64,000 nucleotides of DNA from Dictyostelium discoideum (Eukaryota). The stretch's first letter is position 1. Each line of letters opens with the position of its first letter. The notes beneath the pieces were generated by a model. The model saw nothing but the letters and a program-made list of their open reading frames with translations. It was not told the origin of the DNA and did not search any database. The DNA is taken from the NCBI GenBank assembly GCA_000004695.1, contig CM000154.2:512001-576000 (forward strand). Direction: 5' to 3'. Shown here piece after piece: positions 8,391-37,255 of this stretch. Both the position numbers and the translations under genes were made by a program.

Positions 8391-8460
8391 GATTTTATTT
8401 TATTTTATTTTATTTTATTTTATTTTATTTTATTTTATTTTATTTTATTTTATTTTATTG
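8391..8460. repeat. (ATTTT)n microsatellite just 3' of ABCC copy 1
   Basis: About 13 tandem 'atttt' units. Confidence 0.9.
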
Positions 8461-11064
8461 TTACTATAATCAGTTTGAGATTTAATTAATTTATTAAATT
8501 TGGAATTTGGAATATTCATTAAGTTTGAAGGAGTATCGAATTCTATTAATTGACCACTATCTATTACTGCTATTTTATTACAATCAATAATTGTTTCAAG
8601 TCTATGAGCAATTGTTAAGGTTGTACAATCTTTAAAGTTTTCTTGAATTGTTTGTTTGATTAATTGAGCTGTATGGTAATCAATTGAACTTGTGGCTTCG
8701 TCCATTAAAATGATTTTAAAATTTTTTAAAATCGTTCTACAAAGACATAATAATTGTTTTTGACCATATGAGAAACCATTATCACCATTCTCTTGTAGTG
8801 CTGTCTCTAATTTTAATGGCATTGAATTGATTGCATCCTTTAATTTAACTTTTTCAATTGATTCCCAAATTTCAAAATCAGTGAATTCATTGAATGGGTC
8901 AATGTTTGAACGAATTGTACCTGTGAAAATGAATGGATCTTGAGGTACAATACCTATTGATGATCTTAGTTTTTGTAATTGAACCTTTGATATATCAATA
9001 CCATCAATTAATATTAAACCTTTTGAACATTCTACCATTCTAAATAATGATGAAGCGATAGTTGTTTTACCGGCGCCAGTTCTACCAACTATTCCAATCT
9101 TTTCGCTGGATTGAACTTTAAATGATAAATCTTTTAAATTTGGTTCTGAATTTGGTCGATATTTAATTTCCACATTTTTAAACTCTATAATACCTTTATT
9201 TGGCCAATTAACTAAATCACCATTTGAAATAGTTTTAAGACCATCACTATCAACTTGATTAGTACCAGTGGATATGAGTTTATTTCCTTCTTTTGGAATT
9301 TCAATATAACTTTGAATTCTTTGGAATGAGTTCATTTTAACTTCTAATTCAACGATTCTACGAACTCCCCAACTTAGATAACCATTTAAACTCAAAGCAG
9401 TTGTGACTGATAACGCAGCGAGTCCATTGTTTGATGTGAATAATGCAGCAGCTAATGAAGTAAAGAATACCATTATACAACCCATAACTTCTAATCTCAT
9501 AGATATCCATCTATGAACTGCGAAACTATAAAAGATACAACCTAAATTAATATTGATATTATCAAACATTTCTTTAATAAATCTAGATTCTTGTTTATAA
9601 GTTCTAATTGTAAGTAAACCATTATAGCACTCTTGAAGTAATGAAAATACTGGCGATAATGTAATAGATTCCCATCTATTTAATTCTCTTGCTGATGGTC
9701 TATATAATCTTTGATAAATATAATAAATTATAAATAACAAAGTTAAAGGTATAATAATAATTGGAATAATGAAAACTATTGAAATTAAACCAATTGTTAA
9801 TTCAGAGAAACATATTGAAACCTCTGATAATAGATCCAACATATGAATATCAATATCACTAGTATCTTTACTGAATCTATTTAAAATTCTACCTGATGGA
9901 TTTGTATCAAAGAATCTACATGATGCATATGTTACTGATTTTAATAGTGCTGAATGTAAATTTTTACCAATTCCAAATGTTATACGACTTAATGAATATG
10001 TACGTATCATTAATAACGAAACAAAAATACCAATAATTAATAAATAGTAACCAATGTAAAATGAATCACTTTTGCCTTCAATTGATCTTTCTGTCCAAAT
10101 TGCTAACCAAAAATCTGAAACTTTATAAACGGCTTGACCAATGAAAAATAATGAAATAGTGATGAAAAGTGTTACACCTGATGTTCCATAACTAAAGTAT
10201 TTTTTATAAACATTAAATTCTACCTCTCCCTCATTTTTATCTTCTTTAACTAATAATTTTGCTTTCTCGATTAAATTTGGATCATTCTTATCACTAATAA
10301 CATTATTAACATCAATAATTTCATTTTCGATTTCAATTTCATTTTTTATTAACTCTTCACTATCAGTTTCATTTTCAACATTTTTTTTAATTTCTTTTGT
10401 TTTTAAAATTGATTTAAAATCAATACCTTGAATACAATGATCGAATAAATGTGATGCGACTTCAGGATCTACAGCTGATAAAGGTTCATCAAAAATAAAA
10501 CAATCTGAATTTGCATAAAGTGCACGTGCTAATGATATACGCTGTTTTTGACCTCCTGAAAGGTTAATACCACGTTCTCCAATCTCTGTTAAATCTAATC
10601 CTGCTAAATTTACTATATCTTTTGTTAATGCTGTTGATTCAATAACTTTTTTATATCTTTCTATATCAAATTCATTTCCAAATAGAATATTCTCTCTTAA
10701 TGATGCACTTAATAAAAATGGTTGTTGACTTGTAAATGAAATATTATTTGGTACACCACTAACACTACCATTTAATTTATAAATTTCACCAATTAAACCA
10801 CAAACTAAACTTGTTTTACCGCTACCAACAACACCACAAATCATAGTTAATTTACCTTTTGGTACTATTAAATTAATATCATTTAATTTATAATCAAAAT
10901 TTTCATTTATTTTAATATTTTCTTCATTTTCCTCTTCCTCTTCTTCTTCATTTTCTTCCTCATCTTCGCTTTGATTAAATTCAAATAAATTATTATTTTC
11001 AGGTTCATTCCATTGAAATGTACAATTTTCAATTATAATATCATTATCATCATTATTGTTATTA

Positions 11065-11099
<35 letters not shown>

Positions 11100-12477
11100 G
11101 AAGTTAATATTTTGATTATTTTCTTTTGATTTTAAAGATTCAGAAGATTTTAAAAAATTTTGAATTCTTTTGACTGATGGCATTAAACCAATAGCTTTAT
11201 AAATATCTTCAGGTAAATAAATTAAGGGTAATTTTAAATTTGCAAAAATGGTCATTGCTGTGAAAGTTACATCTAAACTCATTGTATTACCGGTTAATGA
11301 ATAAGTTGCAAATGTTGATACTAATACTAAGGTTGCATTGGTTTCAATCATCATATGATCGAAAATCCAAAATAAAACTCTAAGAAATAAAAATTTTAAT
11401 TCTTGTTTTCTTTGTTCTTCAATTTTATTTATAAATAAATTCTCCCATGCATACATTTTAAATGGTCTAATATTGGTTATTAATTCACTGGTTAAATTAG
11501 TTCTTGAATCTGAATATTCCAATGATTTCTCTAAATAATTACTAGATTTTGTACACAACATGGTGTTGATTGGTAATGCAATTACCATTACACCAAATCC
11601 AACTAAACCACTTGGACCAACTACATAACATAATAATCCCAATAATATAAGAATTTGAAGTGTATGTGATACAATATCTAAATAATAAGTCCAAAAGAAT
11701 TCTGATATATTTTCAACATCAATTGACATAATATTCATAATTTTTCCAGATCTATATTTCTTTTTTGATACATTTGATAGTTTTAATGTTTTTTCAAATA
11801 TCTTTGCTGTTAATGCGCCTCTAACATCAAAACTATTTTTCATACCAAACCAATAAAATAATTCTTGTGAAATTGATTGTCCTAATATACTGATACATAA
11901 TAAACAACATAATAAAATTCCTTTTAAAATGGATTTTTCATTATCATTATCTGTTGATATATAATTTATTAAACTTTTATAAAAAAAAAAAAAAAAGTTA
12001 GTTCTTTTTTAATTTAAAAATAAATAAATATTAGATTAAATTAAATACATACAATTTTAAACAAATTGGTGATAAAAATATAAAAATTGTAATAAATATA
12101 TTTGAAATTAATGCATATTTATTTTTTGGTAAAAAATTTTTATAAATATGTTTTATTAATGCATATTTTGAACCATTTGAAAAATTGATATCATCCAATA
12201 GTTTTGATGTGGTTTGGACTTTATTTAACTCTGGTAAATCATAAATATCGTTCATTTCTAATGATTCTTTGAAATAACCTTTCATTATTAATTTCGTTAC
12301 CCAATTAAAACTAATTTTTGACCATTTTGATGAATTATCTTCTGGACATGCTTTATAAAAATTATTTGTTGAATTTGATGGTGAAGATGATGGTTCATTT
12401 TCATCTTCATCATCAAGCTTTTCATACAATAATGAAAATTTTTTTTTTATTTTTGTTTCGAAACTATTTATAAACAT
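8445..12477 (-). CDS. abcC: ABC transporter, ABCC/MRP subfamily (TMD1-NBD1-TMD2-NBD2), copy 1; 2 exons 12477-12053 and 11963-8445; carries a 45-codon in-frame deletion in NBD1
   Basis: Exon 1 (track ORF 12031-12477) is the MRP-type N-terminus: 'CPE..SS.WSKISFNW' plus the first TM helix. A GTATGT donor (plus 12047-12052, phase 2) and an acceptor after a T16 tract (AG at 11964-11965) join it to the 1132-aa ORF. That ORF has Walker A GVVGSGKTS and GRTGAGKTT, signature motifs LSGGQKQR and FSYGQKQL, Walker B FIFDEPLSAVD and ILMDEATSSID, and H-loop AHRL in NBD2. Confidence 0.85.
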
Positions 12478-12905: not shown

Positions 12906-13230
12906 TACTCTTTATTTTTGAAAAGACAATTTTTTATTTTTCCTATTTATTTTTTATTAATTTTAATTTATTTGTTCATTTTTATTTTTTCTTTTATTTT
13001 TTTTTTTGTTTTTGGTTTCACAAATTTTAGATTTTCGAAAAAAAAAAAAAAAAATCCAATATTCTCCACTCAAAATATAAAATGATTTTACTAAAAGTTT
13101 ACTTCTTCATAAGAATAAGTAAAGGATAAAAGAAAAAAAAAAAAAAATTATTCCAGTCAAGTGGATTTTGATTTAAATAAATTTCTAGAAAAGATTATTT
13201 TTTTTTTATTTATTTATTTGTTTTCATTAT

Positions 13231-16200
13231 TTATTTGTTTATTATTGTTTTTTCATTGTTATTATAATCAGTTTGAGATTTAATTAATTTATTAAATTTG
13301 GAATTTGGAATATTCATTAAGTTTGAAGGAGTATCGAATTCTATTAATTGACCACTATCTATTACTGCTATTTTATTACAATCAATAATTGTTTCAAGTC
13401 TGTGAGCAATTGTTAAGGTTGTACAATCTTTAAAGTTTTCTTGAATTGTTTGTTTGATTAATTGAGCTGTATGGTAATCAATTGAACTTGTGGCTTCGTC
13501 CATTAAAATGATTTTAAAATTTTTTAAAATCGTTCTACAAAGGCATAATAATTGTTTTTGACCATATGAGAAACCATTATCACCATTCTCTTGTAGTGCT
13601 GTCTCTAATTTTAATGGCATTGAATTGATTGCATCCTTTAATTTAACTTTTTCAACTGATTCCCAAATTTCAAAATCAGTGAATTCATTGAATGGGTCAA
13701 TGTTTGAACGAATTGTACCTGTGAAAATGAATGGATCTTGAGGTACAATACCTATTGATGATCTTAGTTTTTGTAATTGAACCTTTGATATATCAATACC
13801 ATCAATTAATATTAAACCTTTTGAACATTCTACCATTCTAAATAATGATGAAGCGATAGTTGTTTTACCGGCACCAGTTCTACCAACTATTCCAATCTTT
13901 TCGCTGGATTGAACTTTAAATGATAAATCTTTTAAATTTGGTTCTGAATTTGGTCGATATTTAATTTCCACATTTTTAAACTCTATAATACCTTTATTTG
14001 GCCAATTAACTAAATCAGCATCCTTAATTGTATGATTATCAACTTCATTTGAGTTTGTTGATACGAGTTTATTTCCTTCTTTTGGAATTTCAATATAACT
14101 TTGAATTCTTTGGAATGAGTTCATTTTAACTTCTAAGTCAACGATTCTACGGATTCCCCAACTTAGATAACCATTTAAACTCAAAGCAGTTGTGACTGAT
14201 AACGCAGCGAGTCCATTGTTTGAAATGAATAATGTTGCAATTAATGAGGTAAAAAATACCATTATCCAACCCATAACTTCCAATCTCATAGAAACCCATC
14301 TATGAACTGCGAAACTATAAAAAAAACAACCTAAATTAATATTGATATTGTCAAACATTTCTTTAATAAATCTAGATTCTTGTTTATAAGTTCTAATTGT
14401 AAGTAAACCATTATAGCACTCTTGAAGTAATGAAAAAATTGGGCTAACTGTAATAGATTCCCATCTATTTAATTCTCTTGCTGATGGTCTATATAATCTT
14501 TGAAGTATATAGTAGGCAATGGATAAAATAATTAATGGAATTACCATAATTGGAATAATGAAAACAATAGAAATTAAACCAATTGTTAATTCAGAGAAAC
14601 ACATTGAAACCTCGGTTAATATATCAAACATATGAATATCAATATCACTAGTATCTTTACTGAATCTATTTAAAATTCTACCTGATGGATTTGTATCAAA
14701 GAATCTACATGATGCATATGTTACTGATTTTAATAGTGCTGAATGTAAATTTTTACCAACGTTGAATGTAATACGACACAATAGTAAAATACGTATCATC
14801 AAGATTACAACAAAAGTACCAAAAATTAATAAATAGTAACCAATGTAAAATGAATCACTTTTGCCTTCAATTGATCTTTCTGTCCAAATTGTTAACCAAA
14901 AATCTGAAACTTTAAAAATGGCTTGACCAACGAAAAATAATGAAATAGTGATGAAAAGTGTTACACCTGATGATCCATAACTAAAGTATTTTTTATAAAC
15001 ATTAAATTCTACCTCTCCCTCATTTTTATCTTCTTTAACTAATAATTTTGCTTTCTCGATTAAATTTGGATCATTCTTATCACTAATAGCATTATTAACA
15101 TCAATAATTTCATTTTCGATTTCAATTTCATTTTTTATTAACTCTTCACTATCAGTTTCATTTTCAACATTTTTTTTAATTTCTTTTGTTTTTAAAATTG
15201 ATTTAAAATCAATACCTTTTTCATTTAATTCTTGATATGTACCTTGAATTAATTGACCATTCGAATTTAAAACTATAATATGATCTGCATATGGAATGAA
15301 TTGAAGTTGATGAGTTACTAAAATTCGTGTTTTATTTCTCATTAATTCTCCTTGAATACAATGATCGAATAAATGTGATGCGACTTCAGGATCTACAGCT
15401 GATAAAGGTTCATCAAAAATAAAACAATCTGAATTTGCATAAAGTGCACGTGCTAATGATATACGCTGTTTTTGACCTCCTGAAAGGTTAATACCACGTT
15501 CTCCAATCTCTGTTAAATCCAATCCTGCTAAATTTACTATATCTTTTGTTAATGCTGTTGATTCAATAACTTTTTTATATCTTTCTATATCAAATTCATT
15601 TCCAAATAGAATATTCTCTCTTAATGATGCACTTAATAAAAATGGTTGTTGACTTGTAAATGAAATATTATTTGGTACACCACTAACACTACCATTTAAT
15701 TTATAAATTTCACCAATTAAACCAAAAATTAAACTTGTTTTACCACTACCAACAACACCACAAATCATAGTTAATTTACCTTTTGGTACTATTAAATTAA
15801 TATCCTTTAATTTATAATTAAATTCTTCATTATCATTTTCTTTTTTATTAATTGATTCATCTTGATTTTCTTCTTCTTCATTGTCACCATAATTTAATTC
15901 AAATATATTATTATTTTCAGGTTCATTCCATTGAAATGTACAATTTTCAACTATAATATCATTATCTTGGCCATGTTGATTATTATTTTCTTTTGTTGTT
16001 GTTATTTTTTGATTTTCATTTTTAAAATTTTTATTATATTTTAAAGATTCAGAAGATTTTAAAAAGTTTTGAACCCTTTTGACTGATGGTATTAAACCAA
16101 TAGCTTTAAAAATATCATAAGGTAGACGAATTAAAGGCACTTCTAATTTTGAAAATATTGTCATTGCTGTGAAAGTTACATCTAAACTCATTGTATTACC

Positions 16201-17373
16201 GTTTAATGAATAAGTTGCAAATGTTGATACTAATACTAAGGTTGCATTGGTTTCAATCATCATATGATCAAGTATTGAGTAAAAAATACGTAGGAATATA
16301 TTCTTTAATTCTTGTTTTCTTTGTCCATCAATTTTATTTATAAAGAAATTCTCCCATGCATACATTTTAAATGGTCTAATATTGGTTATTAATTCACTGG
16401 TTAAATTAGTTCTTGAATCTGAATATTCCAATGATTTCTCTAAATAATTACTAGATTTTGCGCATAACATTGCATTGATTGGTAATGCAATTACCATTAC
16501 ACCAAATCCAACTAAACCACTTGGACCAACTACATAACATAATAATCCCACTAAACTTAATATTTGGATGAAATGGGACACTATATTAATATGATGTGTC
16601 CAAAAGTATTCAGATATGTTTGCAACATCAATTGACATAATATTCATAATTTTTCCAGACTTGTATTCCTTTCTTGATGCATTTGATAATTTTAATGTTT
16701 TTTCAAATATCTTTGCTGCTAATGCACCTCTAACATCAAATCCATTTTTAATACCAAACCAATAAAATAATTCTTGTGAAATTGATTGTCCTAAAACACA
16801 TAAACATAATAAACAACATAATAAAATTCCTTTTAAAATGGATTTTTCATTTTCATCTTGTATTGAAATATAATTTATTAAACTTTATTTTTTTTTTTTG
16901 AAATAAAATAAAATCAATTAATAAAATTGGAAATAATTGGAAAATAAATAAACTATATAATATACTTACAATTTTAAACAAATTGGTGATAAAAATGTAA
17001 AAATTATTATAAATAAATTTGAAACTAAAGCATATTTATTTTTTGGTAAAAATTTTTTATAAATATGTTTTATTAATGTATAATTAGAATTATTTGATAA
17101 ATCTATATCTTCCAATAGTTTTGATGTGGTTTGGACTTTATTTAACTCTGGTAAATCATAAATATCGTTCATTTCTAATGACTCTTTTAAATAACCTTTC
17201 ATTATTAATTTCGTTACCCAATTAAAACTAATTTTTGACCATTTTGATGAATTATCTTCTGGACATGTTTTATAAAAATTATTTGTTGAATTTGATGATG
17301 GTTCATTTTCATCTTCATTATCTTTTAGTTTTTCATAGGACGAAAAAAACTTTTTTAAAATTTTAGTGAACAT
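13231..17373 (-). CDS. abcC: ABC transporter, ABCC/MRP subfamily, copy 2 (intact NBD1 H-loop 'ILVTHQ'); 2 exons 17373-16969 and 16882-13231
   Basis: Same architecture and ~90% identity to copy 1. Exon 1 'MFTKILKKFFSSYEKL...SPICLKL' has a GTAAGT donor at plus 16963-16968. The acceptor ...ATAAAG|TTTAATAAATTA lies after a T-tract. The ATG at 17373 is more likely than the upstream K-rich alternative start reported by the track. Confidence 0.85.
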
Positions 17374-17723: not shown

Positions 17724-17740
17724 GGAATTTTATTTTATGA

Positions 17741-17824
17741 TTTATTTTATATAATTTTGTGTATTTTTGTGTGCTTTATTTATCTATACTAAATTCATAT
17801 TAAAAATTAATAAATTTAAATTGT

Positions 17825-17866
<42 letters not shown>

Positions 17867-18300
17867 GGTCTAATTTGAATGTTATCATCAATATAAACAT
17901 TATTTTTTATATAAAATATATTCACCCGTTGTTCTTCCAAAATAAAAAAATCATTACAAAAAATGGATGAAAAATAATTAAATTCTAAAAATAAAATTTT
18001 TGATTTAAAAAATAAAATAAAAAATTCAAAAAAACAGAATGATTACATTCATTTTTTTTAATTTTTATATCATTTTGTGTATTTTTGAGTGCTCTATTTA
18101 TCTATACTTAATTCATATTAAGAATTAATAAATTTAAATTATTGTTTGAAAAAAAAAAAAAAAAATGAAAAATAAAATAAAAAAAAAAATGAAAATTTTT
18201 TTTTTTTTTTTTTTGGGTGCCCAGTTTGAATGTTTATCAATAATCTGTCCACAAATTATTTTTTTTTATTTTATCTATTTTTATTTTATAATAAAATAAT
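17741..18300 (+). repeat. Two tandem ~290-bp units of a dispersed intergenic repeat. Each unit is a ~95-bp core, a T/A homopolymer, then a GGGT..TTTGAATGTT..ATCAATAAT tail. Units at ~17741-18030 and ~18031-18300.
   Basis: Unit A core (17755-17830) 'ttttgtgtatttttgtgtgctttatttatctatactaaattcatattaaaaattaataaatttaaatt' matches unit B core (18076-18140) almost exactly. Both are followed by a homopolymer and 'gggt(c/g)...tttgaatgtt'. Confidence 0.6.
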
Positions 18301-18346
18301 ATTTTTAAAAACAATATATGTTCTTTTTTTTTTTATTTTTTAATTA

Positions 18347-20137
18347 TTAATTTTCATTTGATTTAATTGTTTGATATAAAAAGCCCATTGTTGAGATTGA
18401 GTCACCTAAACCAACAGTTTTTAAAGGAGATTTACAAACTAAAACTGGGGCTAAATGGAATTCATAACCAGAATCTTGCCAAGTTGTAACTGGTGAAGAT
18501 GGATCGATAATGATTGATTTTGTAGCACCTGGAGTATAACGATAATCTACTTCCACTGATAATGGTAATAATAATTCAACAGAATTGAAACGACAAGCTT
18601 GAAAGGTGGCTTCGATTGAAGAGGCGGCTACTGAAGCTGAAGTTAATTTTGGAGACCATTGCGAATAGGATTTAGTGATAATCAAATGAAATGATAAATA
18701 GTGGAAATGAATTCTAGTTAATAAACGTTGTTTTGACATTGTTGGTATACCAAAATCACCCAAAATATTATCATCGACATTTCTATCGGCAGTGGTGGAG
18801 GTGGTGGTGGTGGTGGCATAATGAAATGAAATTTCCATAATATGAAGTAACGCATTTACAACCACATTAACAGAAGGTTCTTTAAAATCGTCCAAACTGA
18901 ATTTCTTACCACCTGTTGAAACATAGATAAAGCCTAATTCCTGTTCGTTCAATCCGACAGAGTCAACGAATGGTATGATCTTTTTAGCCAATAAATTAAT
19001 ATAGGAAGGTGAAGCGATTGACGCCAATTCCAAATGAATTGGTACATTCAACGATGGATGATTTAAAAAGTTTGAAGGATTATTATTGTATGGGATTTGT
19101 TTCAATAGGTTGACCATATCATTTACACGTCTTTCTTGAGCCTCTTCGGTTAATAAATGTAAACCTGATAAGAGTAATAAATCTGGTTGTTTCTTTTCAA
19201 TCTCTTGATGGAATGATTCCATTGTCATTAGATGTGAGTTTGTGTTATCTCTTGATATGATGAATCTATTGGAACGTGGTGGTGAGATTGAACCCCATCT
19301 ACTCTGTTTATTGTATTCCATAATTAGATGAATCTCATCAAACTCTTCGCCATTCTCTGACTGATAACCAATGATTGACACTGATGGCGACAAGAGTTCC
19401 TTCAATTTCTTGCCAATGATACCGCCCAAATAAACCCTACAACCATCTGCCACCAATCTATTTGCCATTATACCTGCATTGCCACCGGTGTAGAATTGCT
19501 TTGATTCAGATTGCAATGCTGCTGCCAAAATCGCAGAAAAGGTATCTTCATTTTCAATCATACGTTCAGCTGCTGAACCACTCTTAAAATAATGTGAAAA
19601 GGTTTGTTCAAAATCATCCAATGATTTAATGACCTCTTTTGACATTGGTCTATTATGAATGGATGATTTCAATTTCAATTTATCCATTAATTCTATTGCA
19701 TCAACCACTAAATCTAAATTTGTATTATATCCAACTGCTATTGTTTTATTCTTACATTCTTCGTTCCATTCTTTATATTTTGCTATATCTTTTAATCCAT
19801 TTTCAATCTTTTTCATTGATTTTATATCATCAATTATATTTATATTTGTATTATTATTATCATTATTGTTATTTAAATTATTACTATTATTTCCGCTATC
19901 ATATAATGGATTGATTCTAAGGTATATATAAAATATAACTAAACATATAAAAAACACAACTAATCCTCCAAATTTTAAATTACTTAATGGTCTCTCAACT
20001 AAAATCTTTGGTCTATTTGCTTTTTGTTCTATCTTTTTTAATTTTTTTTTACTGATCTCTGGTGATTGTGATGATTGTGATGTTGGACTACTATTACCAA
20101 CTAATGGTGGTGAATTTTTTGTTTGTCTTTTACTCAT
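18347..20137 (-). CDS. ADP-dependent glucokinase (ADPGK, ribokinase-like superfamily), with N-terminal signal-anchor TM
   Basis: Single 596-aa ORF. It has an N-terminal hydrophobic anchor 'GGLVVFFICLVIFYIYL', the motifs 'GGNAGIMANRL' and 'VGLNEQEL' (the ADP-dependent kinase NEQE motif), and the C-terminal 'VGLGDSIS' GXGD catalytic motif typical of ADPGK/ADP-PFK. Confidence 0.75.
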   Translation of the reverse strand: MSKRQTKNSPPLVGNSSPTSQSSQSPEISKKKLKKIEQKANRPKILVERPLSNLKFGGLVVFFICLVIFYIYLRINPLYDSGNNSNNLNNNNDNNNTNINIIDDIKSMKKIENGLKDIAKYKEWNEECKNKTIAVGYNTNLDLVVDAIELMDKLKLKSSIHNRPMSKEVIKSLDDFEQTFSHYFKSGSAAERMIENEDTFSAILAAALQSESKQFYTGGNAGIMANRLVADGCRVYLGGIIGKKLKELLSPSVSIIGYQSENGEEFDEIHLIMEYNKQSRWGSISPPRSNRFIISRDNTNSHLMTMESFHQEIEKKQPDLLLLSGLHLLTEEAQERRVNDMVNLLKQIPYNNNPSNFLNHPSLNVPIHLELASIASPSYINLLAKKIIPFVDSVGLNEQELGFIYVSTGGKKFSLDDFKEPSVNVVVNALLHIMEISFHYATTTTTSTTADRNVDDNILGDFGIPTMSKQRLLTRIHFHYLSFHLIITKSYSQWSPKLTSASVAASSIEATFQACRFNSVELLLPLSVEVDYRYTPGATKSIIIDPSSPVTTWQDSGYEFHLAPVLVCKSPLKTVGLGDSISTMGFLYQTIKSNEN

Positions 20138-20329
20138 ATTTTAATTTATTTGTGTAAAAGAGATTTTAAAATAAAAATAAAAAAAAAATTTTCAAAATTA
20201 AAAATAAAAAAAATATTTTCATTTTTTTTTTTTTTTTTTTTTTTTTGTTTTTTATTTGTAATTTTTCTATTTTTTTATTATTTTTTTTTTTTTTTATTAT
20301 TAAAAAAATGATTTAAATTATTTTTTTAA

Positions 20330-20425
20330 TATGAATTTAGTATATAAAAATAGAACACTTAAAAATACACAAAATGATATAAAATATAAAAAAAATGAAT
20401 GTAACCATTTTCTGTTTTTTGAATT
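20330..20425 (-). repeat. Inverted copy of the ~95-bp dispersed repeat core
   Basis: The reverse complement 'aaaaaacagaaaatggttacattcattttttttatattttatatcattttgtgtatttttaagtgttctatttttatatactaaattcat' aligns with 18031-18125, which reads 'aaaaaacagaatgattacattcatttttttta atttttatatcattttgtgtatttttgagtgctctatttatctatacttaattcat'. Confidence 0.6.
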
Positions 20426-20541
20426 TTTTTTTTTTTTTTTTTTTTTTTTGGAAAATTAATTTTTTTTGAATTTTTTTTTTTTTTTTAATTTTTTTTTTTT
20501 TTTTTATGATCATCAACCACTTCAACATTTTTAATTTAAAA

Positions 20542-20572
<31 letters not shown>

Positions 20573-20723
20573 TCAAATTAATTGTAAATAATAAAAAGTA
20601 AAAATAAATAAACAAACAAATAAAATTTTATAAATTTCACAATTCTAGTTAATAAACATTCACCACAACATAATATAAAATAAAATAAAATAAAAAAGAT
20701 AAAAAATAAAAAATAATAAAAAA

Positions 20724-21193
20724 ATGACAAAAACAGAAACTAAAGTAGAACCAAAAGCAGAGGTCAAACCAAAAGAAGATAATGTAGAAGTTATTGAAGA
20801 TGATGAATTTGAAGAGTTTGAAGATAGTAAATATATATTAATACATTATTTATTTGTTTATTTATATTTTTATTAAATTAACAAACTAACAATATTTTAT
20901 TATTATTATCATTATTATCATCATTATTATCATTGTCATTATTCTTTTATTCATAGATATGGCCGAAGGCGAAGATAACTCAAAAGAACAATGGGAAGAT
21001 GATTGGGATACTGATAAAATTGATGACGATTTTTCAAAACAATTAAGGTACATATTATATTAAAACTTGATACTCTCAATACCATAATCATTATTCTAAT
21101 ACCTTTTTTTTTTTTAAAAAAAAAAATTTTAATATACACCCATACATATATTACAGAGCTGAAATTGAATCCCACTCAACCATGAAATCATAA
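20724..21193 (+). CDS. dss1: 26S proteasome complex subunit DSS1/SEM1 (3 exons: 20724-20826, 20957-21046, 21157-21193)
   Basis: The spliced product is [76 protein letters not shown]. The acidic DSS1 core 'EDDEFEEF...WEDDWDDD...DDFS.QLRAEL' is diagnostic. Donors are GTAAAT (20827) and GTACAT (21047). Acceptors are TTATTCATAG (20956) and TATTACAG (21156). All phases are consistent. Confidence 0.8.
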
Positions 21194-32712: not shown

Positions 32713-33039
32713 ACATATATCTCTTTTATTTTATTTTATTTTTTTTTTTTAAATTAGGCAAATATTATAATTTAAATAAGATTAAAAAAAAAAAATAAAA
32801 ATAAAAATAAAAAGTAAGCACTTTTTTTTTTTTTTTTCCTTTTTCTTTTTTGTGTAGATAAATATATTATCTAAAAATAAATGAATTGGTTAAATTAACA
32901 CAAAAAATCGATTTTTAATTTCATAATTGTAAAAAATTAAAAAAAAAAAAAAAAAAAAAAAAATATTCATTTTCATTTTTTTTAATTTTATTTTTAATTT
33001 TTTTTTAATTTTTTTTTTTTTTAACAATGATTTAATTTT

Positions 33040-33135
33040 AAACTTAATATGAATTTAGAATATAAAAATAAAACACACAAAAATACATAAAATGATTTTA
33101 AAAATCAAAAAAACCAATGAAACCATTCTTTTTTT
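33040..33135 (-). repeat. Fourth copy (inverted) of the ~95-bp dispersed repeat core
   Basis: The reverse complement '...tgatttttaaaatcattttatgtatttttgtgtgttttatttttatattctaaattcatattaag' aligns with the 17755-17830 and 18076-18125 cores. Confidence 0.55.
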
Positions 33136-33367
33136 TTTTTTTAATTTTTTTTTTTTTTTTCAATCAAAAATTTTATTCTTGGAATTTAATTATTTGTTAA
33201 TTAAATGACTATTTTTGGATTAAACAATTAATATAAATAAAAAAAAATAAAAAAATTACAAATGAGGATATAATTTAAAAATACATGTAAGGATTTTAAT
33301 TGAAAAACATAAAAGTTTATTTTTATTTTTATTTTATTTTTAATTTTTTTTTATTTATATTTATTGT

Positions 33368-37255
<3,888 letters not shown>

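Follow-up and report, generated by a model that had tools for sequence, protein, structure and literature searches.

The genome of Dictyostelium discoideum is compact, and its intergenic DNA consists mostly of low-complexity A/T sequence. On chromosome 5, a more complex sequence lies in inverted copies on either side of the gene for ADP-dependent glucokinase (ADPGK), which raises the question of whether this gene was once carried by a mobile element or whether the repeat came to a gene that was already in place. A preliminary description of the region had likened the inverted pair to the ends of a composite or MITE-like element, and had offered a shared cis-regulatory module as an alternative. 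Here we examine the repeat in a window of 64,000 nucleotides (the whole stretch of DNA analysed), extended by 14 kb of added flanks, and at the orthologous loci of three sister species.

A four-copy repeat family around ADPGK

The four sites named in the preliminary description are all present at or near the places it had given, as was found by BLASTN of the copy B unit against the window, and they form a real family of non-simple sequence (Table 1). In this search, copy B (18007-18188) matched copy C (20441-20262) with 84.7% identity over 183 nt (E 9e-46) and copy D (33155-32945) with 80.3% identity over 218 nt (E 2e-36). A self-BLAST of the window lengthened the latter match to 17972-18214 against 33195-32945 (81%, 255 nt). 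BLASTN also aligned B (18063-18140) with A (17745-17822) at 93.6% over 78 nt, and copies C and D share 80.7% identity over 171 nt. In a MAFFT alignment of the shared core, identities were 89% (A-B), 87% (B-C), 83% (B-D and C-D), 82% (A-C) and 81% (A-D), and core identity across copies thus ranges from 81 to 94%. Local-alignment scores of the cores lie 16-37 sd above those of dinucleotide-preserving shuffles, and a 51-nt consensus with at most 3 mismatches matches A and B where 0.00 matches are expected. The search relied on BLASTN and a complexity filter, since simple sequence (AAT and A/T) filled the output of a generic repeat finder. Tandem ABC-transporter genes and simple-sequence tracts aside, this is the sole non-simple repeat family in the window.

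Table 1. Positions of the repeat copies and of the gene that two of them bracket (window coordinates).
Feature	Position	Strand	Description
Copy A	17735..17895	+	Core 17745-17822, T35, GGGT..TTTGAATGTT..ATCATCAATAT tail; without head and without A-rich tract
Copy B	17972..18245	+	Longest copy; head (AAATAATTAAATTC..TTGATTT, A-rich, ..CAGAATGATTACATTC), core 18050-18140
Copy C	20210..20441	-	Inverted relative to B
Copy D	32945..33195	-	Orientation as C
ADPGK (ADP-dependent glucokinase), DDB_G0287631	18347..20137	-	Pfam PF04587 ADP_PFK_GK, E 2.6e-134

The unit is larger than the ~95 bp first proposed. Homologous sequence in B, C and D covers ~180-280 bp and is laid out as a head, the core and an A-rich tract, closed by ATGAAAAT and a T-run. 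The head flank common to B and D is significant (score 40 against a null of 14 +/- 2.2). After its core, copy B continues with the A-rich tract (18149-18195), T19 and a GGGTG..TTTGAATGTT..ATCAATAAT tail. The tail that had been noted, GGGT..TTTGAATGTT, is real but limited to A and B, where two of the three occurrences of its 10-mer in the window stand at equal offset after the T-run. Copies A and B are likewise direct copies, as had been claimed, but they do not form a clean head-to-tail array of 290 bp: their offset is 318-350 bp, unique sequence lies between them, and TRF made no call of a tandem array.

All four copies lie close to genes. Copy A is ~305 bp upstream of the ATG of an ABC-transporter gene (minus strand, ATG about 17430). 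Copy B ends ~100 bp downstream of the ADPGK stop and is directed into the 3' end of that gene, while the tail of copy C lies 73 bp upstream of the ADPGK ATG (20137), so that the two face each other tail to tail across ADPGK, as had been described. The head of copy C is ~285 bp from the ATG (20726) of the divergent SEM1/DSS1 gene. With gene models taken from a second assembly, copy D sits between a 1122-aa WD40 gene, whose stop codon is at about 33368, and a 293-aa gene, whose ATG is at about 32690; the tail of the copy is ~255 bp from this ATG. A hairpin of 170 nt lies next to copy D. The ADPGK product is a 100% match to the D. discoideum AX4 protein. Two open reading frames in the window have no annotated-protein record.

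Distribution and boundaries of the copies

The four copies are clustered within 15.5 kb, and neither the other 49 kb of the window nor the 14 kb of added flanks holds another. The preliminary description had taken confinement to the window, as by a local segmental duplication, to speak against a mobile or recently amplified element, and within this 78-kb contiguous sample the family is indeed confined. Metagenome scans for the repeat gave 0 matches and then 2 chance matches in DNA of 32-38% GC.

Homology ends with the unit, tblastx finding none in the 2-kb flanks, and precise termini common to all copies were not found. On the head side, B and D reach the equivalent of 17972, C stops in poly-A near 18007-18025 and A begins near 18050. 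At the other end, A and B alone share sequence past the T-run. Every copy boundary falls in an A or T homopolymer, and the junctions are for this reason not reconstructible to base resolution. For instance, the head boundary of copy C lies within a poly-A tract, past which it has no significant homology to B or D, and poly-A occupies the same site in D. citrinum, D. dimigraforme and D. firmibasis.

The hallmarks of transposons were not seen at these boundaries. A search of the three intergenic regions for terminal inverted repeats found A-run/T-run complementarity only, and the B head, aligned by hand to the reverse complement of its tail, gave ~12/20 matches, which is background for such composition. 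In the B-D alignment no direct repeat that could be a target-site duplication was seen at the boundaries of either copy, where homopolymer ends could hide short ones. ARAGORN found no tRNA gene in the window.

ADPGK is a resident gene

If B and C were terminal inverted repeats, with ADPGK the mobilised cargo of a composite transposon, the gene should have a history of movement. The pair does lie inverted on either side of it, much as insertion sequences flank a composite transposon. However, the order PRP4-SEM1-ADPGK-ABC is common to D. discoideum, D. dimigraforme, D. citrinum and D. firmibasis, ADPGK is single-copy and has one place in each of the four assemblies, and the three sister loci have the same neighbours with no repeat beside them. 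Conserved synteny and single copy together mean that ADPGK was never carried anywhere: it is ancestral at its position, outside any mobile unit, and the repeats are later arrivals. No transposase ORF is present. The synteny refutes a composite transposon that mobilised ADPGK, to which we give practically no chance. With no terminal inverted repeats, no target-site duplications seen and copy boundaries that differ, the first suggestion of a composite or MITE-like element that brackets ADPGK is not supported.

A young family in the D. discoideum lineage

The same comparison dates the repeat. None of the orthologous ADPGK loci in D. dimigraforme, D. citrinum and D. firmibasis contains the core. 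Identity at 4-fold sites of ADPGK is 0.64-0.72 between species, whereas the repeat copies are 0.81-0.94 identical to each other. Since the copies are more alike than neutral sites between species, the family arose recently, within the D. discoideum lineage and after the speciation; the suggestion that it was recently amplified is thereby upheld.

A segment of D. citrinum resembles copy C weakly (z 3.4, reached in 2/300 shuffles), a similarity that is not robust across 24 tests. Copy C fills ~230 bp between anchors, and the sister species hold ~190-300 bp of other sequence there, so that copy C looks like a replacement of ancestral sequence instead of added length. Such a replacement is unprovable, because that half of the promoter cannot be aligned among the sister species themselves. 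On the other side of the gene, just downstream of ADPGK, D. citrinum and D. dimigraforme carry an inverted copy of the CTDC gene (81-83% identity, source ~10 kb away), in the same intergenic region as that just downstream of ADPGK in D. discoideum. A search for a decayed CTDC gene between ADPGK and the ABC transporter in D. discoideum found none.

Local copying or a mobile element

Our best explanation, which we hold tentatively and with less than full conviction, is that this is a young, low-copy repeat produced by local copying of one ~0.2-0.28 kb AT-rich intergenic stretch. The distances between copies fit the ladder (D,(C,(A,B))), which implies two dispersed copying events and then a short-range direct duplication. 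The first would have spanned 12.6 kb with orientation unchanged and the second 2.2 kb with inversion, and copies A and B would have come from the later duplication. Copying was probably at the DNA level, with template switching or ectopic templated repair the likely routes, and the junctions would have formed where long poly(dA)/poly(dT) tracts border the unit, as they do at every site. Local templated micro-duplications of this kind similarly give short non-coding copies in a cluster of a few kb, both direct and inverted, with variable boundaries and junctions in homopolymer microhomology. The inverted CTDC copy is an analogous local event at the same site in the sister species, and together with the repeat it suggests that local templated insertions recur just downstream of ADPGK. 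A transposon would yield common termini, and the differing ends of the copies therefore count for local copying; transposition of a defined element seems less likely.

There are points against local copying that must be weighed. At least two of the copying events brought one discrete unit to unrelated intergenic locations, and homology falls off sharply in its flanks. Random template switching would rarely choose the same 200 bp twice, whereas here the unit has served as template more than once, and a mobile element or selection would be the more natural account of this. In addition, the A-rich tract that follows the core of B, C and D, together with the nested 5' ends, resembles what is seen in 5'-truncated retroposed copies.

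The main rival is a locally hopping non-autonomous element, a fragment of thug, DDT or Tdd, or a solo LTR, with three intergenic insertions and a duplication that gave A and B. We regard it as rather unlikely, though it is the likeliest of the alternatives. A discrete unit of ~200-280 bp in three unrelated intergenic contexts, in both orientations and between flanks without homology, is what insertion would produce, as are young copies and orthologous sites in three sister species that lack the repeat. DNA-transposon families make up ~1.5% of the D. discoideum genome (PMC5633606). The MITEs and non-autonomous DNA transposons thug-S/T and DDT-S, compared here by features and not by consensus sequence, are likewise short, non-coding, AT-rich, intergenic, found in both orientations, lineage-specific and young. 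Unlike these, the ADPGK repeat has neither terminal inverted repeats nor common termini, no target-site duplications were seen, with the proviso on homopolymer ends given above, and it forms a local cluster only, every copy lying within 15.5 kb of the 78-kb sample. That copy C appears to replace ancestral sequence, and not to add to it, also weighs against insertion.

The nested 5' ends and the A-rich tract 3' of the core are shared with 5'-truncated non-LTR retroposons or SINEs (TRE5/TRE3). The tract is, however, internal in the ADPGK repeat, being followed by the conserved ATGAAAAT and T-run, and it is missing from copy A. TRE and DGLT-A elements target tRNA genes, and the lack of a tRNA gene in the window argues against both. 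The repeat also contains no Pol III A/B boxes or A/B-box-like G/C motifs and no tRNA-derived region, and no target-site duplications were seen.

A more elaborate form of the mobile reading joins these features. An undescribed, D. discoideum-specific non-autonomous element that lacks terminal inverted repeats, has nested 5' ends and is A-rich on its 3' side, and that moves locally without targeting tRNA genes, might have placed the same promoter-proximal module upstream of ADPGK as copy C and, in opposite orientation, past its 3' end as copy B. With such a pair, sense and antisense transcription could converge, or an intramolecular duplex of 180 nt could form across ADPGK and feed RNAi. We think this a long shot. 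The sequences in the miRNA supplement of PMC6161686 include neither the repeat core nor a nearby hairpin.

Possible functions of the copies

By position, the copies now belong to the sequence upstream of ADPGK/SEM1, of the ABC transporter and of the 293-aa gene. This invites the view, close to the shared cis-regulatory module of the preliminary description, that they are a duplicated and retained promoter module for these genes, with B perhaps an antisense promoter at the ADPGK 3' end. The three sites are promoter-containing intergenic regions, C and D are oriented alike with respect to the ATG downstream of them (73 and ~255 bp away), and the core holds GT-rich motifs (TTGTGTA / TTGTGTG) that may resemble G-box/CA-element half-sites. 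The module is nevertheless missing from the orthologous promoters of three sister species that express the same genes, the GT-rich motifs differ by copy (GTGTG, GAGTG, AAGTG), and orientation to the genes is inconsistent over all copies. The substitution pattern looks unconstrained. Neither conservation nor substitution supports a regulatory module, which we judge improbable, and nothing indicates that the copies were retained for a role in upstream regions. Under local copying, they would simply decay neutrally once made.

A small gene family, either of a structured or Pol III-type ncRNA or of a 23-28-aa hydrophobic peptide (MxTFIFFxFYIILCIFxCSIxxY), is very improbable. For the peptide, B, C and D each contain an open reading frame that starts with an ATG preceded by A-rich sequence, its stop falls at one common position in C, D and A, and AATAAA follows the stop in A and B. 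Yet copy A has no ATG, and between C and D there are 10 nonsynonymous and 2 synonymous differences, the outcome to be expected without selection. The embedded 23-codon ORF was rejected as coding on this count; it appears to evolve neutrally, and its hydrophobic composition follows from the T-rich DNA.

The case for an ncRNA was no stronger. Rfam gave nothing for the repeat, either at the gathering threshold or with the cut-off relaxed to E <= 1. When each core was folded on both strands, z lay between -2.0 and +1.4, no better than shuffles, and no structure was shared between copies. The DUSE sits ~60 nt upstream of Dictyostelium DUSE-dependent ncRNA genes (Class I RNAs, snRNAs). Its motif, [AT]CCCA[CT]AA, has 7 matches in the window against 10.5 expected, none of them near any copy, and a candidate DUSE-type promoter in the tails of A and B, ACCCAAAA as read on the minus strand, was rejected as off consensus. 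Overall, the repeat shows no sign of function.

Significance for promoter turnover

The significance of the family is modest whichever reading holds, and nothing points to a new mechanism. To our knowledge, the known transposons of D. discoideum are confined to tRNA-gene flanks or transposon clusters. If the repeat were a dispersed element, it would add a mobile family that is not targeted to tRNA genes to this genome. As it stands, the repeat has rewritten what lies upstream of three unrelated genes in a span of 15 kb, which would make it a small and datable case of promoter turnover by local copying.

Characterization of the repeat

The repeat seen at four sites is real, since a BLASTN search of the region of B (18000-18300), its longest copy, against the window returns three partners: A (17745-17822; 93.6% identity over 78 nt), C (20441-20262; 84.7% over 183 nt) and D (33155-32945; 80.3% over 218 nt). 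The B-D match lengthens to 81% over 255 nt in a window self-comparison (17972-18214 against 33195-32945). In a four-way alignment, core identities are 81-89%; core local-alignment scores lie 16-37 sd above dinucleotide shuffles, and a 51-nt consensus matches A and B in the window with a chance expectation of 0.00. The family is conspicuous against the featureless A/T spacers (window G+C 21.5%) because, once simple-sequence matches are removed, the 64 kb contain no further repeat apart from the pair of ABC-transporter genes. The perfectly matching ADPGK ORF identifies the source as Dictyostelium discoideum AX4.

Features of the repeat and its surroundings
Feature	Position	Strand	Remarks
Copy A	17735-17895	+
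Copy B	17972-18245	+	longest copy
B head			AAATAATTAAATTC...TTGATTT, A-rich stretch, ...CAGAATGATTACATTC
B core			runs to ...AATTCATATTAAG and a short stretch past it
B A-rich tract			~45 nt, final letters ATGAAAAT; then T-run
B tail, after T-run			GGGTG..TTTGAATGTT..ATCAATAAT
Copy C	20210-20441	-	SEM1-ADPGK spacer
Copy D	32945-33195	-	beside 1122-aa WD40 gene
Short ATG-initiated core ORF	B 18040-18126; C 20414-20343; D 33124-33053		23-28 aa, very hydrophobic, e.g. MVTFIFFIFYIILCIFKCSIFIY
Two tandem ABC-transporter genes	left of ADPGK; nearer ATG ~17430	- (nearer gene)
ADPGK (ADP-dependent glucokinase), 596-aa ORF	18347-20137	-	PF04587, E 2.6e-134; 100% identical to DDB_G0287631
SEM1/DSS1 small gene	start 20726	+
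PRP4-type WD40 gene	beyond SEM1/DSS1
Long inverted repeat	33205-33381	+	near-perfect; arms ~45 nt, 94-96% complementary; spacer ~82 nt
D. citrinum extra Dicty_CTDC copy	L003 11830-12380 vs 1322-1867	inverted	one copy
D. dimigraforme extra Dicty_CTDC copies	L002 11912-12553 and 13071-13590 vs 1565-2212	inverted	two copies

The unit is longer than the 95-bp core by which it was initially sized, and its ends are not common to the copies. The full head is shared by B and D (score 40 against a null of 14 +/- 2.2), homology of C ends within a poly-A tract, and that of A starts only at the core. Similarity beyond the T-run is confined to A and B. A local-alignment test there is not significant, but TTTGAATGTT, which occurs three times in the window, has two of its occurrences at equal offset in A and B. 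Nor are A and B tandem units, as had been proposed: unique DNA separates them, their offset is 318-350 bp, and TRF reports no tandem array. D is equally divergent from B and C (~17-20%), B and C differ by 13-15%, and A and B by 6-11%; shared sites and distances agree with a ladder, (D,(C,(A,B))).

All four copies recur in another D. discoideum assembly (GCA_054883475.1), where they are 97-100% identical to those of the window. The preliminary description held that local confinement would speak against a mobile element, and within the sequence sampled confinement is what we find: the four copies lie inside 15.5 kb, with none in the other ~62 kb sampled, including added flanks of 9.3 kb (right) and 4.7 kb (left). 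Such a cluster would be rare for a randomly dispersed family of at most a few hundred copies. A family of at least a thousand would make up ~0.6% of the genome and is unlikely to have been overlooked until now, because it would be as large as the catalogued D. discoideum DNA-transposon families (PMC5633606).

The neighbouring ABC-transporter genes (8395-12414 and 13195-17322) share 88-99% identity, reaching 99% across a 440-bp block (10426-10865 against 15350-15789). In D. firmibasis, too, the gene is present as a tandem pair, ~90% identical to one another. These similarities point to an old duplication whose copies gene conversion has homogenised.

Comparison with sister species

ADPGK loci with 10-kb flanks were compared from D. 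dimigraforme, D. citrinum and D. firmibasis, whose orthologues are 89%, 89% and 86% identical to that of D. discoideum. The repeat was found at none of them. All three keep the PRP4-SEM1-ADPGK-...-ABC order, which refutes the proposal that B and C are terminal inverted repeats of a composite transposon carrying ADPGK. The copies are 0.81-0.94 identical, against 0.70-0.72 (D. dimigraforme, D. citrinum) and 0.64 (D. firmibasis) at ADPGK fourfold sites between species; therefore all copying events post-date the species splits, consistent with the absence from the sister loci. The repeat is thus genuine, young and specific to its lineage, which bears out the suspected recent amplification.

The SEM1-proximal half of the SEM1-ADPGK spacer aligns in all four species as far as a poly-A tract. 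Its alignable blocks (window 20451-20725; ~9450-9745 in L002-L004, the sister loci) include ...GTTGATGATCA... and TTCAAAAAAAATTAATTTTC. The ADPGK-proximal half, the site of C, is unalignable in every species pair save for short blocks near the ATG; its turnover has been complete in every lineage. The three sister species retain a GTGAACA block ~25 bp before the ADPGK ATG that D. discoideum has lost. C occupies ~230 bp between anchors that in the sister species enclose ~190-300 bp of other sequence; C looks like a replacement, not a simple insertion, although this is unprovable. The C core shows weak collinear similarity to a D. citrinum segment (z 3.4, 2/300 shuffles) that fails correction for 24 tests.

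Nature and origin of the repeat

Retention as a promoter module is unlikely. The earlier suggestion of a shared cis-regulatory module fares poorly, as the sister-species loci are without the repeat and GT-rich motifs differ between copies. A small gene is more improbable still. B, C and D each contain an uninterrupted hydrophobic ORF of 23-28 codons, but of the changes in it between C and D 10 are nonsynonymous and 2 synonymous, a pattern expected without selection; lacking a synonymous excess, the ORF is probably an incidental result of T-rich composition. The unit has no Rfam match, no RNA fold of it beats shuffles, and no DUSE motif lies near any copy.

The main rival is a transposable element, non-autonomous or fragmentary, moving locally. 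Its strongest point is the repeated copying of one and the same discrete unit, yet we consider it less likely: an inverted-repeat search around the copies gives no TIRs besides A-run/T-run complementarity, the copies have neither recognisable TSDs nor common termini, and the window contains no tRNA genes. No homology flanks the repeat unit. Our tentative preference is for repeated local copying at the DNA level, in which template switching or ectopic templated repair would have copied the stretch more than once, with junctions placed in homopolymer tracts, and the copies would then have decayed neutrally.

The spacer directly downstream of ADPGK, which holds A and B in D. discoideum, carries inverted CTDC copies in D. 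citrinum and D. dimigraforme, 81-83% identical to a source ~10 kb away. These extra copies are absent from D. discoideum and D. firmibasis. Since D. discoideum has no CTDC remnant downstream of ADPGK, local inverted copying into this spot has occurred independently in another lineage.

A gap of 10 nt separates the head of D from the start of the long inverted repeat at 33205-33381, and the 1122-aa WD40 gene has its stop codon in the right arm of this repeat. The predicted fold is a hairpin of ~170 nt with an MFE of -46.3 kcal/mol, compared with -23.0 +/- 3.3 for shuffles (z = -7.0). It has no second copy in the window or the fetched loci and no entry in the miRNA supplement of PMC6161686. This predicted hairpin could be MITE-like or pre-miRNA-like.
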